Shown in pieces: positions 14,312 to 38,997 of a stretch of 64,000 nt of DNA (the stretch's first letter is position 1; every line of letters starts with the position of its first letter). Source of the DNA: an uncultured Bacilli bacterium (GTDB lineage Bacteria; Bacillota_I; Bacilli_A; RF39; UBA660); contig CAKOLI010000005.1 in the NCBI GenBank assembly GCA_934096265.1, positions 2,054 to 66,053 on the forward strand. The letters are read 5' to 3'. The position numbers were made by a program, and so were the translations under genes. Under the pieces are notes generated by a model. That model was not told the DNA's origin and searched no databases. It saw only the letters and a list, made by a program, of their open reading frames with translations.

Positions 14312-14341
14312 CTGCACAAAATAAGAAAAATATGTTATACT
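14312..14341 (+). promoter_or_regulatory. Putative promoter of fibre locus A
   Basis: CTGCAC (14312-14317), 18-nt spacer, TGtTATACT extended -10 (14333-14341). The stretch is homologous to the region upstream of locus B at 35467-35495. Confidence 0.45.
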
Positions 14342-14358
14342 TATAATGGTGGTAGTCT

Positions 14359-14862
14359 ATGAAAAAAATATCATTATATATCTTTGGAATAATATATATA
14401 ATTATTACAGCAGTTATGACAATATTTTTACTTTCTAAAAATGAATATAACGTAACAGAAATTAACGACAATACATACTATATAGTTACAAAGAAAAATC
14501 TAAAATATAATAAAGGTGACTTACTTTTAATAAAAAATGAAAGTCCTAACAAAATAGAAACTGATAAGTACATCTTCTATTACAATACTTATGCTAAAAA
14601 TATGCAAGTAGATATCGCGAAAATTGTCGAAGTAGAAAAAATAACCGAAACAGAAACAACATACTTACTAGACAATGATGCTTATATTTCAAGTGAATAT
14701 GTAATAGGCAGTACTGATACAGTGAAAATAGTCCCACTAGTGGGTTACATCATTATGGTATTAGAGTCTACATGGGGATATTTACTATTTATTGTCTTAC
14801 CATTATTTATCTTATTTTTACTTGAAATGCGTTCTATTATAAAAGAGACAAGGAAAAAATAA
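14359..14862 (+). CDS. SipW-like membrane protein lacking the catalytic residues (pseudo-signal-peptidase), locus A
   Basis: It has the N-terminal TM, central beta-domain and C-terminal TM (WGYLLFIVLPLFILFLL) of SipW-type peptidases. Its paralogue is 35512-36042. The S-M-x-P box position reads KKNLKYNKGD and the T-H-R/Q box position reads IAKIVEVE. No Ser or His is at the expected sites by eye. Confidence 0.6.
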   Translation: MKKISLYIFGIIYIIITAVMTIFLLSKNEYNVTEINDNTYYIVTKKNLKYNKGDLLLIKNESPNKIETDKYIFYYNTYAKNMQVDIAKIVEVEKITETETTYLLDNDAYISSEYVIGSTDTVKIVPLVGYIIMVLESTWGYLLFIVLPLFILFLLEMRSIIKETRKK

Positions 14863-14863
14863 C

Positions 14864-15832
14864 ATGAAGCAAAAAAGAATAAAAAAACGTAATACCATAA
14901 CAAGAAGAATTAGAAACCTATTAATAAGAAAAAGAACTCTATTAATCATAATATCTATATTTTTACTACTTACAACAACTATAAGTATAACTTATGGTAG
15001 ATATATTTATACAGAAATAAGAAATTATTACCTATCTAGTAAAAACTTTTATTTTAACAGTGATAAACTTAAAGATAATATGGCAAGATATCAAATTGAT
15101 AACTGGTCGGGTGTAGATTCATTAAATATCATTATTAATTTAAATAGCCAAAAAAACAACAAATTAGCATCAGATAGTGATATTACTTACAATATATCTT
15201 TTACTTGTTCAGACAATGTAACATGTACATCTAGTAAAACAAACGGAACTATCTTAGTGCCAGGCAATACTGATTACTTCGTCATGACAATAACACCTAA
15301 TACAGTACTTCAGGAAAATGATAAAGTAACTATGTACCTAGAGGCAAGCGCTACCTCTCCATATACCAAAACCATCAGTGGATTTTTTACCATAAATATT
15401 GGTATACCAGGCCTATCCTATGAAATATCAGATGTATCAAACAGACCATATCTATTAGTAAATATAACAAATACAATAGATTATTATAAAGTAATTACCC
15501 CGTTTGATAATTATCAAAGCCAAGAAAAAATAGATATAAATACCTATCTAAACCTTACAGACGAAAATAAAGATAAATGTGCATCAGCAATTATAACTCT
15601 AAAATTTGATCCCAATATTGTAATTTTAGATATGGCCAGTAGTGCTTACTTAAAAGCTTTCAACATAAAAACAATTCATATCAATAGTTATGATTATGTA
15701 AGTGAAATTTCTTTTAAAATGGATGCACTATCCAGTGAAGTAGTAAACTTTTACAAAAAAGATACCCAAATTGACTATACATACCCATTTGTAAATGATA
15801 CTTCTATTATAAATGTTTCTTATGAAATATAG
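14864..15832 (+). CDS. Secreted protein with SipW-class signal (TYGRY motif), TasA-like accessory subunit candidate
   Basis: 322 aa. Basic N-terminus, one hydrophobic segment, then ...TTISITYGRYIYTE. The mature part is beta-rich and Asn/Thr/Ser rich. It starts 1 nt after the upstream gene. Confidence 0.55.
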   Translation: MKQKRIKKRNTITRRIRNLLIRKRTLLIIISIFLLLTTTISITYGRYIYTEIRNYYLSSKNFYFNSDKLKDNMARYQIDNWSGVDSLNIIINLNSQKNNKLASDSDITYNISFTCSDNVTCTSSKTNGTILVPGNTDYFVMTITPNTVLQENDKVTMYLEASATSPYTKTISGFFTINIGIPGLSYEISDVSNRPYLLVNITNTIDYYKVITPFDNYQSQEKIDINTYLNLTDENKDKCASAIITLKFDPNIVILDMASSAYLKAFNIKTIHINSYDYVSEISFKMDALSSEVVNFYKKDTQIDYTYPFVNDTSIINVSYEI

Positions 15833-15844
15833 AAAGGAAACTGT

Positions 15845-16810
15845 ATGAGCCGTAATGTAGTAAATGATTATATCAAAATATCCAAAAAAAGCAATAAATC
15901 TTACCTGAAATTAATCATGGGAACTAAATACAACAACATGATTTTTGAAAAACTGTTTAGTGAATATATTAATGTAAGATATTATGATATGTACGAAAAC
16001 GTATCTAAAAGTGAAGAAAAAAATATTAACTACTATCTAAAAAAAACATCAATAAAATTAATTGAAGAAAATCCCAAAAACTACCAAGTAGTAAAATTAA
16101 CATTTGGGCTATTTAAATACATACTATATTTTGACAATGTAAAAGAAGTAGATTCATGGGAAATACTTATAAACAAACTAAAAAACAGCTTAAACAGTGA
16201 ACTTAAATATGAATTTCCAAGTGAACAATTAATTGCCATGATAACAGAAACAGAAAAACATAAACAAGAATATTTAAATATATTTAAAACAAATAATTTT
16301 AACCTAACTAAAACCAAGACTAATATTAAATCATTATATGATATATCAGTAGACTATGATATTAAATTTCCAAGACTATATAGTGAATATGCAATAGAAA
16401 AAGTATCCAATGAAGAAGTTATTAAAGAAGATAGACAACTAGTAGAGTATTATTTAGTAAGTATAGATTTATTAAAAGACATAATAGATAATAAATTTAA
16501 TAATAATTATCTAGTAAGCTTTAATATAAACCTACAAGAAAAAAAGAACAAATGGACAAGACTACTAAATGTAATTGACTCAGAAGTAACTAAAGAACAT
16601 CTAATCTTTAAAATTACCTATACTACTTTTACAGAAAATAAAAATAGTATAAACAAATTAATTAACGAGGGATTTCACTTTGCCTTAATAATTGATGAAA
16701 CTTATACTAATAACTTAGTTGAAGACCAAAACCTAGCAATATTTACTTATATAATAGTACATGAAAAAAAGGAAATATATAAAAATATCAAAAACATTGT
16801 AATTATGTAA
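15845..16810 (+). CDS. Cytoplasmic protein of unknown function with a possible degenerate EAL-like C-terminal half
   Basis: 321 aa with no TM. The C-terminal pattern is YLVSFNINLQ...LIFKITYT...LINEGFHFALIIDETYTNNL...FTYIIV. This parallels the EAL-domain pattern vsvNlS...l.lEiTE...L...G..ialDDFGtGys...iKiD but with catalytic acidic residues replaced. RBS agaaaggaaa. Confidence 0.35.
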   Translation: MSRNVVNDYIKISKKSNKSYLKLIMGTKYNNMIFEKLFSEYINVRYYDMYENVSKSEEKNINYYLKKTSIKLIEENPKNYQVVKLTFGLFKYILYFDNVKEVDSWEILINKLKNSLNSELKYEFPSEQLIAMITETEKHKQEYLNIFKTNNFNLTKTKTNIKSLYDISVDYDIKFPRLYSEYAIEKVSNEEVIKEDRQLVEYYLVSIDLLKDIIDNKFNNNYLVSFNINLQEKKNKWTRLLNVIDSEVTKEHLIFKITYTTFTENKNSINKLINEGFHFALIIDETYTNNLVEDQNLAIFTYIIVHEKKEIYKNIKNIVIM

Positions 16811-16822
16811 AGAAGGTGAAGT

Positions 16823-37707: not shown

Positions 37708-37710
37708 TCA

Positions 37711-37717
37711 TTCGACA
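37711..37717. promoter_or_regulatory. Spo0A box (TTCGACA) upstream of the major-subunit promoter
   Basis: Perfect 7-mer located 29 nt upstream of the -35 hexamer and followed by an A9 tract. Confidence 0.45.
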
Positions 37718-37745
37718 AAAAAAAACAAAAAATTCATTTTATGTA

Positions 37746-37774
37746 TTGCAAAAAAAAAATAACTATGCTATAAT
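37746..37774 (+). promoter_or_regulatory. Near-consensus sigma-A promoter with extended -10 for the 37830 gene
   Basis: TTGCAA (37746-37751), exactly 17-nt spacer, TGcTATAAT (37766-37774). The spacer begins with a homopolymeric run; A10 spans 37750-37759. Confidence 0.65.
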
Positions 37775-37829
37775 CTAAAGTATATGATAGATGGTAAAAA
37801 CAACATGTAGAATAGATAAGGAGTATGGC

Positions 37830-38981
37830 ATGGAAAATTTAGAAATTAAAGAAAACAAACAAAACGAAGAAGAAAGAAAGAAAAAAGTTGCAATAATACT
37901 AAGAAGAAGAAAAAGAAGAGGCAAGAAATTATTTTTATTACTATTAATTTTAGTAATGACAGGAATCATGCTAACGACTACAACATACGCATGGTTTACT
38001 TCAAATAAGACAGTATCTGTAAGTGATGTACAAGTAAATGTTGCTTCTAAAAACGGTATACAAATATCTGCCGATGGTACAAATTGGAAATCAATAGTAC
38101 AACTAACAGACTTAACTGGTGCCAAAGCAACATATCCAGGTGCTGTTAATCAAATACCTGATACTACCCAAACTATTGAACCAGTATCTAGTGCATTAAA
38201 CGTAGACGCTAGTGGCCAAATGGAGATGTTTTATGGCGTAATAGAAAACTCAAAATTAAAAGATAGTTGTTCAACTGGAGATGGTGCATATACCGACAGA
38301 GCTACTTGTGAAGCTCAAGGAGGAACGTGGACTGTCGGAACAGAAGGTCAATATATATTAACAGCTACTAAAGAAACAGATGCTCACGGTACTACTGGTA
38401 AATATGTTGCATTTGACTTATTCTTTAGAGTAGATAGTCAAACTCAAGTATACTTAACAGCTGAAGGTTCTGGCGTTGTAGCTACAGGAAAAGATACAGG
38501 TATCAAAAATGCATCAAGAATAGCATTCGTTGAACTAGGCAATACTGCATCAGGTTCTACATTATCGACTATTCAAGGATTAAATACAGGTGCTGGCTCT
38601 ACAGTATACCTTTGGGAACCTAACTATGATATACATACTGCATCAGGCGTTTCAAATGCTAAAGACGTATATGGACTTGATATAGGTACTACTGATGAAG
38701 CTTTGTTACCATATTCTGGAATTAAAGCAGATATAGCAGAAGCAAGCAATATCTTATTAGGCAAAGCTACAGAAACTGATTATAGTGATATGTTTAAAAC
38801 CGTCAATCCAACATACTCAACTGTAAATGGATGGACTGGTACAAAAGCAATATTTACTCTACAAGCAGGCATCACAAAAATGAGAATATACATGTGGGTA
38901 GAAGGACAAGATGTTGACTGTGAAAATACTGCATCAGGTGGTAACATAATCTATAGTTTACAAATTACTACAGAAGGTTAA
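37830..38981 (+). CDS. Probable major fibre subunit: large TasA-like secreted protein (TYAWFT signal motif), locus B
   Basis: ATG at 37830 lies 6 nt after RBS aaggag. The track start at 37791 would lie about 10 nt from the predicted transcription start. The N-terminus is ...RRRKRRGKKLFLLLLILVMTGIMLTTTTYAWFTSNKTVSVSDVQVNV. It is paralogous to 22121-23137. It is rich in Gly, Thr and Ala and visibly less AT-rich than its neighbours. It has its own strong promoter and terminator. Confidence 0.7.
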   Translation: MENLEIKENKQNEEERKKKVAIILRRRKRRGKKLFLLLLILVMTGIMLTTTTYAWFTSNKTVSVSDVQVNVASKNGIQISADGTNWKSIVQLTDLTGAKATYPGAVNQIPDTTQTIEPVSSALNVDASGQMEMFYGVIENSKLKDSCSTGDGAYTDRATCEAQGGTWTVGTEGQYILTATKETDAHGTTGKYVAFDLFFRVDSQTQVYLTAEGSGVVATGKDTGIKNASRIAFVELGNTASGSTLSTIQGLNTGAGSTVYLWEPNYDIHTASGVSNAKDVYGLDIGTTDEALLPYSGIKADIAEASNILLGKATETDYSDMFKTVNPTYSTVNGWTGTKAIFTLQAGITKMRIYMWVEGQDVDCENTASGGNIIYSLQITTEG

Positions 38982-38997
38982 AATACCTTCTTTTTTT
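38972..38997 (+). terminator. Rho-independent terminator of the major-subunit gene
   Basis: agaaggt (38972-38978) pairs with accttct (38985-38991). The loop is 6 nt and the T7 tract ends at 38997. The hairpin overlaps the stop codon. Confidence 0.75.

Follow-up and report, generated by a model that had tools for sequence, protein, structure and literature searches.

What does a bacterium build with a gene cluster in which signal peptidase genes, active and inactive, lie among genes for secreted proteins and around a GTPase related to McrB? This question is raised by a stretch of DNA from an uncultured Bacilli bacterium (contig CAKOLI010000005.1). The whole stretch, 64,000 nucleotides long and with a G+C content of ~27%, is called the window here. 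Between positions 14359 and 38981 of the window, 19 closely packed open reading frames (ORFs) are found, 18 on the plus strand and one, A8, on the minus strand; genes and their products are named A1 to A11, X1 to X3 and B1 to B5 in order of position. A preliminary description, made from the letters of the DNA, had taken this region for two paralogous loci, A and B, of an expanded fibre system of the TasA type, in which SipW-like peptidases process the subunits. All the ORFs that it listed exist where they were placed, and its interpretation is partly supported. The cluster is very probably a dedicated SipW-dependent system for surface proteins. With less assurance, we lean towards a pilus-like surface filament system that depends on Sec and SipW and is known to date only from uncultured Bacilli, mostly of gut or rumen samples; the evidence given below is best read as a fibre of many paralogous subunits.

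First, four proteins of the cluster are homologues of signal peptidase I of the endoplasmic reticulum (ER) and archaeal type, and are SipW-like. Two of them, A6 (19486-20070; plus strand, as are all cluster genes except A8) and B3 (36654-37169), are active members of this family. They obtain 69.6 and 74.2 bits, respectively, on the profile TIGR02228 (cutoff 51.85), the catalytic Ser, His and Asp are found in both, and B3 can be aligned with human SEC11A/C, SGSM and THR motifs included. In B. subtilis, the Ser47/His87/Asp106 triad is needed for SipW activity (PMC8767453). The other two, A1 (14359-14862) and B1 (35503-36042), are homologues but not active members, because both have Asn at the position of the catalytic Ser and Val at that of the catalytic His. 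On TIGR02228, B1 obtains 21.9 bits, under the cutoff, and A1 is unmatched at E ≤ 1; on the SipW equivalog NF046067, A1 obtains just 11.4 bits. Homology of the peptidases is seen in BLAST (A1 with B1, 3e-36; B1 with A6, 1.4e-6; A1 with A6, 3e-4) and in an hhalign comparison of the pseudo-SipW family with the SipW family (98.5%). The earlier claim of four SipW homologues with inactive paralogues among them was borne out in this way, as two active and two dead enzymes, and so was the assignment of the active ones to signal peptidase I. A1 and B1 retain both transmembrane (TM) helices (8-26 and 143-161 in A1). In 79 related loci, which were fetched for an analysis of synteny and compared with the window proteins by phmmer, the catalytic His is absent in 78/78 pseudo-SipW orthologues, and the true SipWs have the Ser, the His and the (second) Asp each in 79/79. 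Since the helices are retained and the loss of His is shared by all 78, the pseudo-SipWs are ancient and maintained pseudo-enzymes, and not decaying genes.

Second, the presumed substrates of these peptidases have a junction in common. The pattern [ST][YF][AGS]x[YF] stands directly behind a single N-terminal hydrophobic segment in eight proteins. These are A2 (14864-15832; 322 aa, secreted or at the surface, TYGRY at residue 43 after the TM segment), the small subunits A7 (20042-20665; SYAWF at residue 38), A8 (20701-21300, minus strand; TYAKY at residue 29), B2 (36044-36637; TYALF) and B4 (37144-37707; TFSRY at residue 30), the large or major subunits A10 (22121-23137; TYAWFS at residue 32) and B5 (37791-38981; TYAWFT), and the giant protein A11 (23149-30675; 2508 aa, TYGDY at residue 39). 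The true start of B5 is probably Met14, as annotated in a relative with a 96%-identical B5. Of the 52 non-overlapping ORFs of ≥ 100 aa in the window, these eight alone carry the motif within the first 80 residues, and the background rate outside the eight sites is ~2e-4 per residue, so that the eight are not due to chance. Nine substrates had been counted before; the ninth, A9 (21417-22121), has an anchor (TM 25-43) but lacks the motif. Each orthologous family conserves the junction, which fits the -3/-1 rule, with [ST] at -3 and [AGS] at -1, if it is cut where TasA is cut. Mature TasA (PDB 8AUR) begins at Ala28, inside GTWA|AFND, and TYA|WFT of the cluster would likewise be an aromatic cleavage junction. 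TIGR04088, the model of SipW-dependent-type signal peptides, matches 56 of 68 major-subunit relatives at E ≤ 0.1 (best 3.5e-5). B5 itself, with 18.7 bits, falls just below the cutoff of 19. In the SipW-cognate signal class proposed before, this model would place most of the major-subunit relatives, and it leaves A10 and all the small subunits unmatched; the junction itself is nevertheless common to all eight proteins.

Third, the genes are kept together in evolution. When one genome per species was scanned, relatives of the major subunit B5 turned up in 424 species-level genomes, apparently all uncultured (metagenome-assembled genomes (MAGs) or metagenome bins), many of them from human, chicken or ruminant gut samples, with labels such as Bacilli, 'Tenericutes', Erysipelotrichaceae and 'Clostridium sp. 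CAG'. In the 79 loci, homologues of pseudo-SipW (70-71 loci), SipW (69-71), B2/A8 (65) and B4 (62) are the most frequent, followed by those of X1 (50), the giant protein A11 (49), A9 (38), A2-A5 (29-33; A2, always adjoining A3, in 33) and A7 (29). The commonest order is A11-X1-B1-B2-B3-B4-B5, often then A1-A2-A3-A4-A5-A6-A7(-A8-A9-A10-A11). A merged layout, B1-B2-B3-B4-A2-A3-A4-A5-A6-A7-A8(-)-A9-B5-X1-A11, is found in other genomes, and a further one is A9-major-X1-SipW-A11. In the last of these, SipW has a conserved cytoplasmic C-terminal extension of ~230 aa with the motif LYDMPIYVFL...YND.EFFD (L059:11950-13200, L062:12875-14038, L065:12914-14113 and L070:6267-7529, L numbers being our names for loci), and this tail has no detectable similarity to A3, X1, A4 or A5. 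The neighbourhood is thus kept, with rearrangements, and since the same modules recur, reordered, across many genomes, loci A and B are regarded as modules of one supercluster. Its parts seem to have been repeatedly shuffled yet kept together. The pairs of paralogues on which the idea of two loci was built do exist (A1 and B1, A6 and B3, A8 and B2, A10 and B5), but they belong to one conserved supercluster and not to a local duplication. The same survey adds a member that had been omitted, X1 (30948-32468), a cytoplasmic protein of 506 aa with neither TM segments nor a known domain. It belongs to the system because it is found in 50 of the 79 loci, where it always adjoins the giant gene, and on this gene order it is probably a conserved partner of that gene.

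Peptidase and subunit are also joined physically in some relatives. In eight loci (L004, L006, L017, L022, L033, L039, L042 and L066), SipW and B4 form a single in-frame fusion, encoded by ORFs of 364-380 aa (e.g., L017:8772-9896). The fusions consist of the peptidase domain, its second TM helix, a Lys/Glu-rich cytoplasmic linker, a third TM helix, a YTLSRF junction and the B4 domain, and with this topology both the peptidase domain and the B4 domain would be outside the cell. As a Rosetta-stone fusion, this arrangement appears to tie the peptidase to the B4-type small subunit.

What kind of protein are the subunits? They fall into a few paralogous families. A10 and B5 are 37% identical (E about 2e-83 to 4e-78), and A8 and B2 find each other in BLAST (2.5e-13). 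In hhalign, A7 is linked to the A8/B2 family at 95.5% over 149 columns, B4 to the same family at 95%, and A2 to the B4 family at 78%. The C-terminus of A9 is homologous to that of the major subunit (BLAST with B5, 4.8e-5; hhalign with the major-subunit C-terminus, 84%), and in related loci the A9 gene always lies immediately upstream of the major-subunit gene. From its sequence, A9 is a candidate for the base or anchor of a fibre. Ahead of the last strand lies an invariant acidic loop with a Cys, which reads EGQDVDCE in all major subunits (38901-38924, residues 371-378 of B5) and EGDDPxC in A9 (22061-22081, residues 215-221). The loop could bind a metal (Ca2+) or serve in covalent linkage. The families are large. 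Homologues of B5 form at least 2707 clusters at 90% identity (E ≤ 0.001), none with a Pfam domain; one automatic JGI functional label is the only name given, and the NCBI records are 'hypothetical protein' of Bacilli MAGs. The small-subunit profile collects 2658 clusters at 50% identity. A match of A10 to DUF7399 was not reproduced in 67 relatives and was treated as chance.

The likeness to TasA can be examined at this point. If the cluster were an expanded, bona fide TasA/camelysin system for biofilm matrix, with TasA jelly-rolls assembled as in tapA-sipW-tasA, one could cite the SipW-type peptidases adjoining proteins with junctions like GTWAAF and GTFAYF, and the TIGR04088 matches of most major-subunit relatives. 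The families themselves do not follow. PF12389 (Peptidase_M73) is not matched at E ≤ 0.1-1 by any of the 19 window proteins, 43 small-subunit relatives or 68 major-subunit relatives, and by contrast, all the TasA relatives listed carry this domain. Against a TasA-family profile of 38 sequences, whose query was verified as identical to PDB 8AUR, hhalign gives the small-subunit family a probability of 7.7% (E 0.0045, the C-terminal 50 columns only) and the major-subunit family 0.2%, aligned at the junction. These best, non-significant alignments do fall at matching places, namely the C-terminal two strands ending TQ[YW] in the small subunits and the signal junction with the first strand in the major ones. 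In searches of PDB sequences with B5, A7, A11 and the small-subunit profile, nothing useful was found. TasA structures (8AUR, 5OF1) are absent from the top 50 Foldseek matches in PDB for the monomer models of B5 and B2, although such AlphaFold monomers may miss a strand-swapped state. No TapA homologue is present in the cluster. The subunits are not detectable members of the TasA/camelysin family, and neither that membership nor a TasA-like jelly-roll, both of which had been proposed, was upheld; a true TasA system is improbable here.

Nevertheless, the organization resembles that of TasA systems. In tapA-sipW-tasA of B. subtilis and sipW-bsaA-bsaB-bsaC of C. perfringens, an ER-type peptidase is likewise encoded among its presumed substrates, and several paralogous subunits are encoded per operon, as in the cluster. 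At ~25 kb, the cluster is much longer than the tapA operon of ~2.5 kb. Unlike those systems, it has subunits outside PF12389 by hidden Markov model, profile-profile and fold searches, no TapA, two active and two dead peptidases, an McrB/McrC module, X1 and a giant repeat protein. TasA and BsaA polymerize by donor-strand exchange (PMC9674648; PMC11580942), and neighbourhoods of BsaA and TasA contain multiple paralogues per operon (PMC11580942).

Structure prediction brings the small subunits closer to pilins than to TasA. The AlphaFold 2 model of B2 has a mean predicted local distance difference test (pLDDT) of 74, with residues 31-39 and 48-67 below 50; such a low-confidence N-terminal segment after the cleavage site is as expected of an unpaired donor strand. 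The model suggests a pilin-like beta-sandwich. Its top Foldseek matches are FimG with donor-strand peptides (E 5e-4 to 1e-3, probability 0.93-0.98), followed by the Hyper2 cannula-like tube 9BAB (E 0.014, probability 0.66), the FimA rod, FimI, Cnm-N2 and BcpA. B2 may thus have an immunoglobulin (Ig)-type fold like FimG and Hyper2 rather than the TasA jelly-roll, which is a weak assignment from a model. In the literature (bioRxiv 10.1101/2024.12.30.630787), Hyper2/CanX, AbpA, the 0406 thread and TasA are placed together in a 'TasA superfamily', whose members are donor-strand filaments and match type 1 pilins at the level of sub-domains. Because B2 matches both Hyper2 and type 1 pilins, the small subunit may be placed, weakly, in this structural neighbourhood. 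The model of B5 is beta-rich and better (mean pLDDT 85.9, with a low-confidence stretch at 64-72 at the junction). Its best Foldseek matches are beta-sandwich or jelly-roll proteins of a generic kind, with the Saci_0406 thread no better than E 0.36.

Two further families of filaments are instructive in this respect. The archaeal filaments of the 'TasA superfamily' (CanX/Hyper2, AbpA, Saci_0406) have Sec/signal peptidase I signals and often adjacent signal peptidase genes, as in the cluster, and Ig-like or jelly-roll subunits with N-terminal donor strands; one of them, 9BAB, is among the weak matches of B2. The archaeal filaments are free of chaperones and NTPases, and the host of the cluster is a bacterium. 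Among chaperone-usher systems, type 1 pili provide the best structural match of the small subunit, FimG with its donor-strand peptide, and have many minor subunits, as the cluster has. A two-domain architecture of pilin plus adhesin is also known both there and in relatives of the cluster proteins. Indeed, the small-subunit domain is found elsewhere at the N-terminus of larger, adhesin-like proteins with BspA-type leucine-rich repeats (LRRs) or ephrin-receptor-like repeats, one of them 3424 aa long. In the relatives P0296, P0317 and P0345, for example, it is followed by BspA-type LRRs, by ephrin-receptor-like Cys-rich repeats, or by 3200 more residues ending in an FGE-sulfatase-like part. By analogy, such fusions have the look of a tip-adhesin architecture, typical of heteropolymeric pili. 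Different from type 1 pili are the SipW processing of the ER type and TM-scores of just 0.26-0.40. No periplasmic chaperone or outer-membrane usher was matched by Pfam or NCBIfam models in the cluster proteins, and the host is presumably monoderm, as inferred from its affiliation with Bacilli.

Do these proteins polymerize at all? They may instead be a coat or a set of adhesins that have only SipW cleavage or N-terminal anchoring in common, exported and processed by the cluster without forming fibres. The major subunit does not resemble any known filament subunit in structure, its very large family would also suit a coat protein, and the giant protein and the LRR or ephrin-like fusions are adhesin-like by themselves. 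This is unlikely, however, in view of the paralogy of the families, whose order and apparent number are conserved, of the anchored paralogue A9, which has only the C-terminal strands of the major subunit in common with it, of the pilin-like fold of the small subunit with its low-confidence N-terminal extension, and of the fusions of pilus type just described.

The giant protein A11 has a Gly/Asn-rich repeat region at ~690-1600, with ~25 residues per repeat. In it, 22 motifs of the form [IVLFY][YFS]GG[GSN] are mostly 24-26 residues apart, and it is a reasonable inference from this spacing that the region may form a beta-solenoid (beta-helix). A11 has no match in Pfam and none among PDB sequences. 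Its homologues lie next to X1 in 49 of the 79 loci, and it is a candidate for a distal adhesin.

The most unusual part of the cluster is the cassette A3-A4-A5. It opens with A3 (15845-16810), a cytoplasmic protein of 321 aa without TM segments. A4 (16823-18343) is a membrane-anchored (TM 58-76), McrB-like AAA+ GTPase with a signature of the NxD type. It is related to E. coli McrB (PDB 6ut6) over the GTPase core (E 7e-4) and matches PDC-M26A of PADLOC at 3.9e-32; other PADLOC models do not match the cassette. Its GTINNDDST is aligned with the GTANHDETT found in two GTPases of the CoCoNuT type and with NTAD in E. coli McrB. Formally, NNDD could also be taken for NxxD, but it fits the branch pattern 'NxD followed by D/E'. 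Weak matches to FtsL_2 (E 0.067, residues 66-113) and ftsL_broad (E 0.44, residues 64-116) follow the TM segment, which points to a putative N-terminal TM and coiled-coil region of the CoCoPALM type. A5 (18353-19471) is the McrC-like partner, with an N-terminal DUF2357 (PF09823, E 1.3e-12) and no recognisable nuclease domain. Three orthologues (7e-11 to 6e-13) have the same domain alone, inspection of the family consensus by eye showed no conserved PD-(D/E)xK pattern, and a coiled coil is only suggested by a weak APG6_N match. A2, A3, X1 and X3 have no domains in scans with Pfam, NCBIfam, PHROGs and PADLOC; a likeness of A3 to EAL proteins, suspected by eye, was not supported by Pfam. The AAA+ pair that had been described here is therefore an McrB-like GTPase with a DUF2357 McrC-like partner, and A3 stands beside it without a recognisable domain.

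An association of this kind has been named before. Bell et al. (eLife 2024, PMC11090510), in one paragraph that defers the analysis to a later paper, use the name CoCoPALM and note that McrBC-like genes are associated with signal-peptidase genes across a 'large clade'. The cluster resembles the systems outlined in that paragraph in the NxD GTPase A4, with its N-terminal TM segment, putative coiled coil and weak FtsL/FtsB-like matches, in the DUF2357 McrC homologue A5 and in the signal-peptidase-family genes around them. The features that could not be mapped onto tapA-sipW-tasA are indeed elaborate, but the peptidase paralogues and the NTPase pair among them match what that paragraph calls CoCoPALM. 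Its passages on this association are silent on pseudo-peptidases, the subunit families, A3, X1, the giant protein and the McrBC-free B module. In the literature searched, no follow-up paper on CoCoPALM was found, and the co-occurrences of 'SipW' with 'McrB' that were examined were incidental (e.g., the genotype of an E. coli strain).

Is the cassette a part of the machine or a passenger? In the ~30 loci that carry it, it is invariably flanked by A2 and the SipW gene A6. Most of them have the order pseudo-SipW-A2-A3-A4-A5-SipW; in merged layouts, B4 and not pseudo-SipW precedes A2. A3 is found in 30 of the 79 loci, always ordered A2-A3-A4. The mean pairwise identity of A4 across loci, 73%, is the highest in the cluster, where other proteins have 31-51%. 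Because A4 is the most conserved protein and the position between A2 and A6 is fixed, gene order and conservation argue for A3-A5 as a probable core machine of the cluster rather than a passenger defence cassette.

McrBC relatives naturally recall defence, and the A module (A1-A7), or the whole cluster, might be an McrBC-derived defence system in which the surface proteins are effectors or sensors, for receptor masking or phage sensing. The NxD branch to which A4 belongs, its nearest plasmid relatives in operons of the CoCoNuT type and its match to a PADLOC candidate all recommend this idea. However, A5 is nuclease-less, no HEPN or other nuclease gene is adjacent to the cassette, and no second PADLOC model is matched. 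A4 has a TM segment and a putative coiled coil at its N-terminus instead of a DNA-reading domain, its high conservation is unlike that of fast-evolving defence genes, and its cassette always has the gene of a motif-bearing subunit on one side and a SipW gene on the other. A defence function is accordingly improbable. The operons on the plasmids of Rhodoferax (L082) and Deinococcus (L083) are conserved, with genes for VWA, PP2C, kinase, an AAA protein of ~1100 aa, a hypothetical protein, an McrB-like AAA protein of ~790 aa and a DUF2357 protein of ~610-705 aa; the signatures LQGISGTGKTSL and NHDE are common to A4 and these CoCoNuT-type systems.

It may also be asked if A3-A5 were inserted into a fibre operon by chance and carried along vertically. 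In about 49 of the 79 loci, no A module adjoins the B module, X1 and the giant protein, and local insertions do occur in the cluster, such as the LemA-family protein and the 527-aa protein described below. On the other hand, the ~30 loci all keep A2-A3-A4-A5-SipW-A7, though the module sits in at least three places relative to the B module and the giant gene, and the A2-A7 genes of the window are separated by gaps of 10-15 nt or overlap. The independent observation of the same signal-peptidase association, made in the paragraph of PMC11090510 for a 'large clade', also speaks against accident, which we consider very improbable.

For a filament system, we infer the following course of events, from cleavage and polymerization to the roles of the subunits, pseudo-peptidases and GTPase. 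Precursors would be inserted by Sec via their one N-terminal signal-anchor. A6 and B3 would cut after [ST]-[YF]-[AGS], which leaves a new N-terminus x-[YF] followed by a strand-forming segment. The freed segment would complete the incomplete Ig-like sandwich of the next subunit by donor-strand exchange. The large subunits A10 and B5 would make the shaft, and A7, A8, B2, B4 and perhaps A2 would be adaptor, tip or base subunits. A9, with its membrane anchor retained and C-terminal strands like those of the major subunit, would form the base, and A11 with its cytoplasmic partner X1 would be a distal adhesin or cargo. A1 and B1 may bind the same junction without cutting it, as a holdase, an assembly platform or a regulator. 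Such a non-cleaving role echoes the peptidase-independent function that SipW has in B. subtilis (PMC8767453). Finally, A4, the nuclease-less A5 and A3 may form an NTP-driven module for control or assembly at the cytoplasmic face, of the CoCoPALM kind. A bolder version of this scheme, in which the dead peptidases form an usher- or chaperone-like membrane platform that holds incoming subunits by their uncleaved junction and the A4 hexamer with A5 and A3 is a McrBC-derived GTPase motor, would make the cluster a new machinery of pilus biogenesis in Bacilli; this we regard as doubtful. If it is true, the motor would power or gate the hand-over of subunits, the extension or retraction of the fibre or the export of the 2500-aa adhesin.

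Several points weigh against a filament of this kind. No relation to TasA is seen by Pfam, profile-profile or fold search, and the B5 model has no Foldseek neighbour in PDB at E ≤ 0.001, the best being E 0.027. The matches of B2 with FimG are weak, with TM-scores in the range given above, a root-mean-square deviation of ~8 Å and a model of pLDDT 74. The small subunits also escape the signal-peptide model TIGR04088. In the giant protein, the junction motif is not kept in all orthologues; those of L069 and L062 have it, and those of L056 and L075 have an ordinary AXA-type signal. The closest plasmid-borne relatives of A4, at 33-39% identity (E ~1e-50), belong to the CoCoNuT-type operons of Rhodoferax and Deinococcus. 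To our knowledge, the donor-strand fibres described in monoderm bacteria and archaea do without an NTPase, and the role given to A3-A5 is speculative for this reason. The fibre is predicted from genes, and the organisms are uncultured.

The surroundings of the cluster deserve a brief account. Upstream lie an rRNA operon and a transfer-messenger RNA (tmRNA) gene at 13854-14209 on the minus strand (Rfam RF00023, 164.6 bits), 150 nt upstream of A1. Islands frequently integrate at tmRNA genes. The G+C content of the cluster equals that of its flanks, except in the Gly-rich giant gene. Since hundreds of related species keep the cluster and its G+C content matches the flanks, the view that the whole region is a recent island at the tmRNA gene was rejected as the main story. 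Between X1 and B1, at 32530-35333, are X2 (32530-33741), a protein of the LemA family (PF04011, E 1e-49) with a long N-terminal coiled-coil extension, and X3 (33750-35333), a 527-aa protein with three TM segments. Both are absent from all 79 loci, yet present in L080, a near-identical relative with a 96%-identical B5, so that they are taken as a lineage-specific insertion outside the system. Directly after B5, an IS3-type transposase pair is found at 39078-40240 on the plus strand, two consecutive ORFs of 109 and 263 aa that resemble orfA and orfB. The contig of the relative with the 96%-identical B5 stops right after B5, as would be expected if the assembly is interrupted by a repeat at this point.

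The gene A8 is turned against its neighbours. Between the convergent A7 and A8, a perfect 14-bp hairpin (20664-20707) is probably a shared terminator. A promoter-like site precedes A8 on the minus strand (21343-21315), with TTGAAA-17-TATAAT and an upstream TG, near consensus. The orientation of A8 is opposite in almost all related loci, and it is on the same strand as A7 in L028. A8 was considered as an invertible, phase-variable segment, and this was rejected, as the flanking inverted repeats are merely 73-77% complementary in AT-rich DNA. Elsewhere in the window, a response regulator at 7028-7792 on the plus strand has, as read by eye, a C-terminal helix of the Spo0A type, which suggests that the host retains Spo0A. 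In B. subtilis, Spo0A controls the tapA-sipW-tasA operon.

Two parts of this picture are already known in outline: SipW-linked fibre operons with multiple paralogues (PMC11580942) and the McrBC link, to the extent that it is set out in the CoCoPALM paragraph (PMC11090510). In the literature searched, no description was found of the non-Pfam subunit families, the pseudo-peptidases, X1, the giant protein, the McrBC-free core module or the wide distribution in Bacilli. The relatives of the major subunit fill protein clusters by the thousand, and the sources checked give none of them a Pfam domain or a functional name. The cluster defines new protein families for the major subunit, the small subunit, A2, A3, A9, X1 and pseudo-SipW. 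If the filament reading is true, this would be the first fibre system dependent on SipW to include an NTPase and conserved pseudo-peptidases. It would also provide a concrete and testable case of a McrBC motor in a role other than defence, at which the note on CoCoPALM only hinted, and in the bolder version, a restriction-enzyme motor would have been exapted to build a surface organelle. If the product is a fibre with a giant or modular adhesin at its tip, it would probably be a main means by which these gut bacteria with small genomes attach to hosts, food particles and other microbes.

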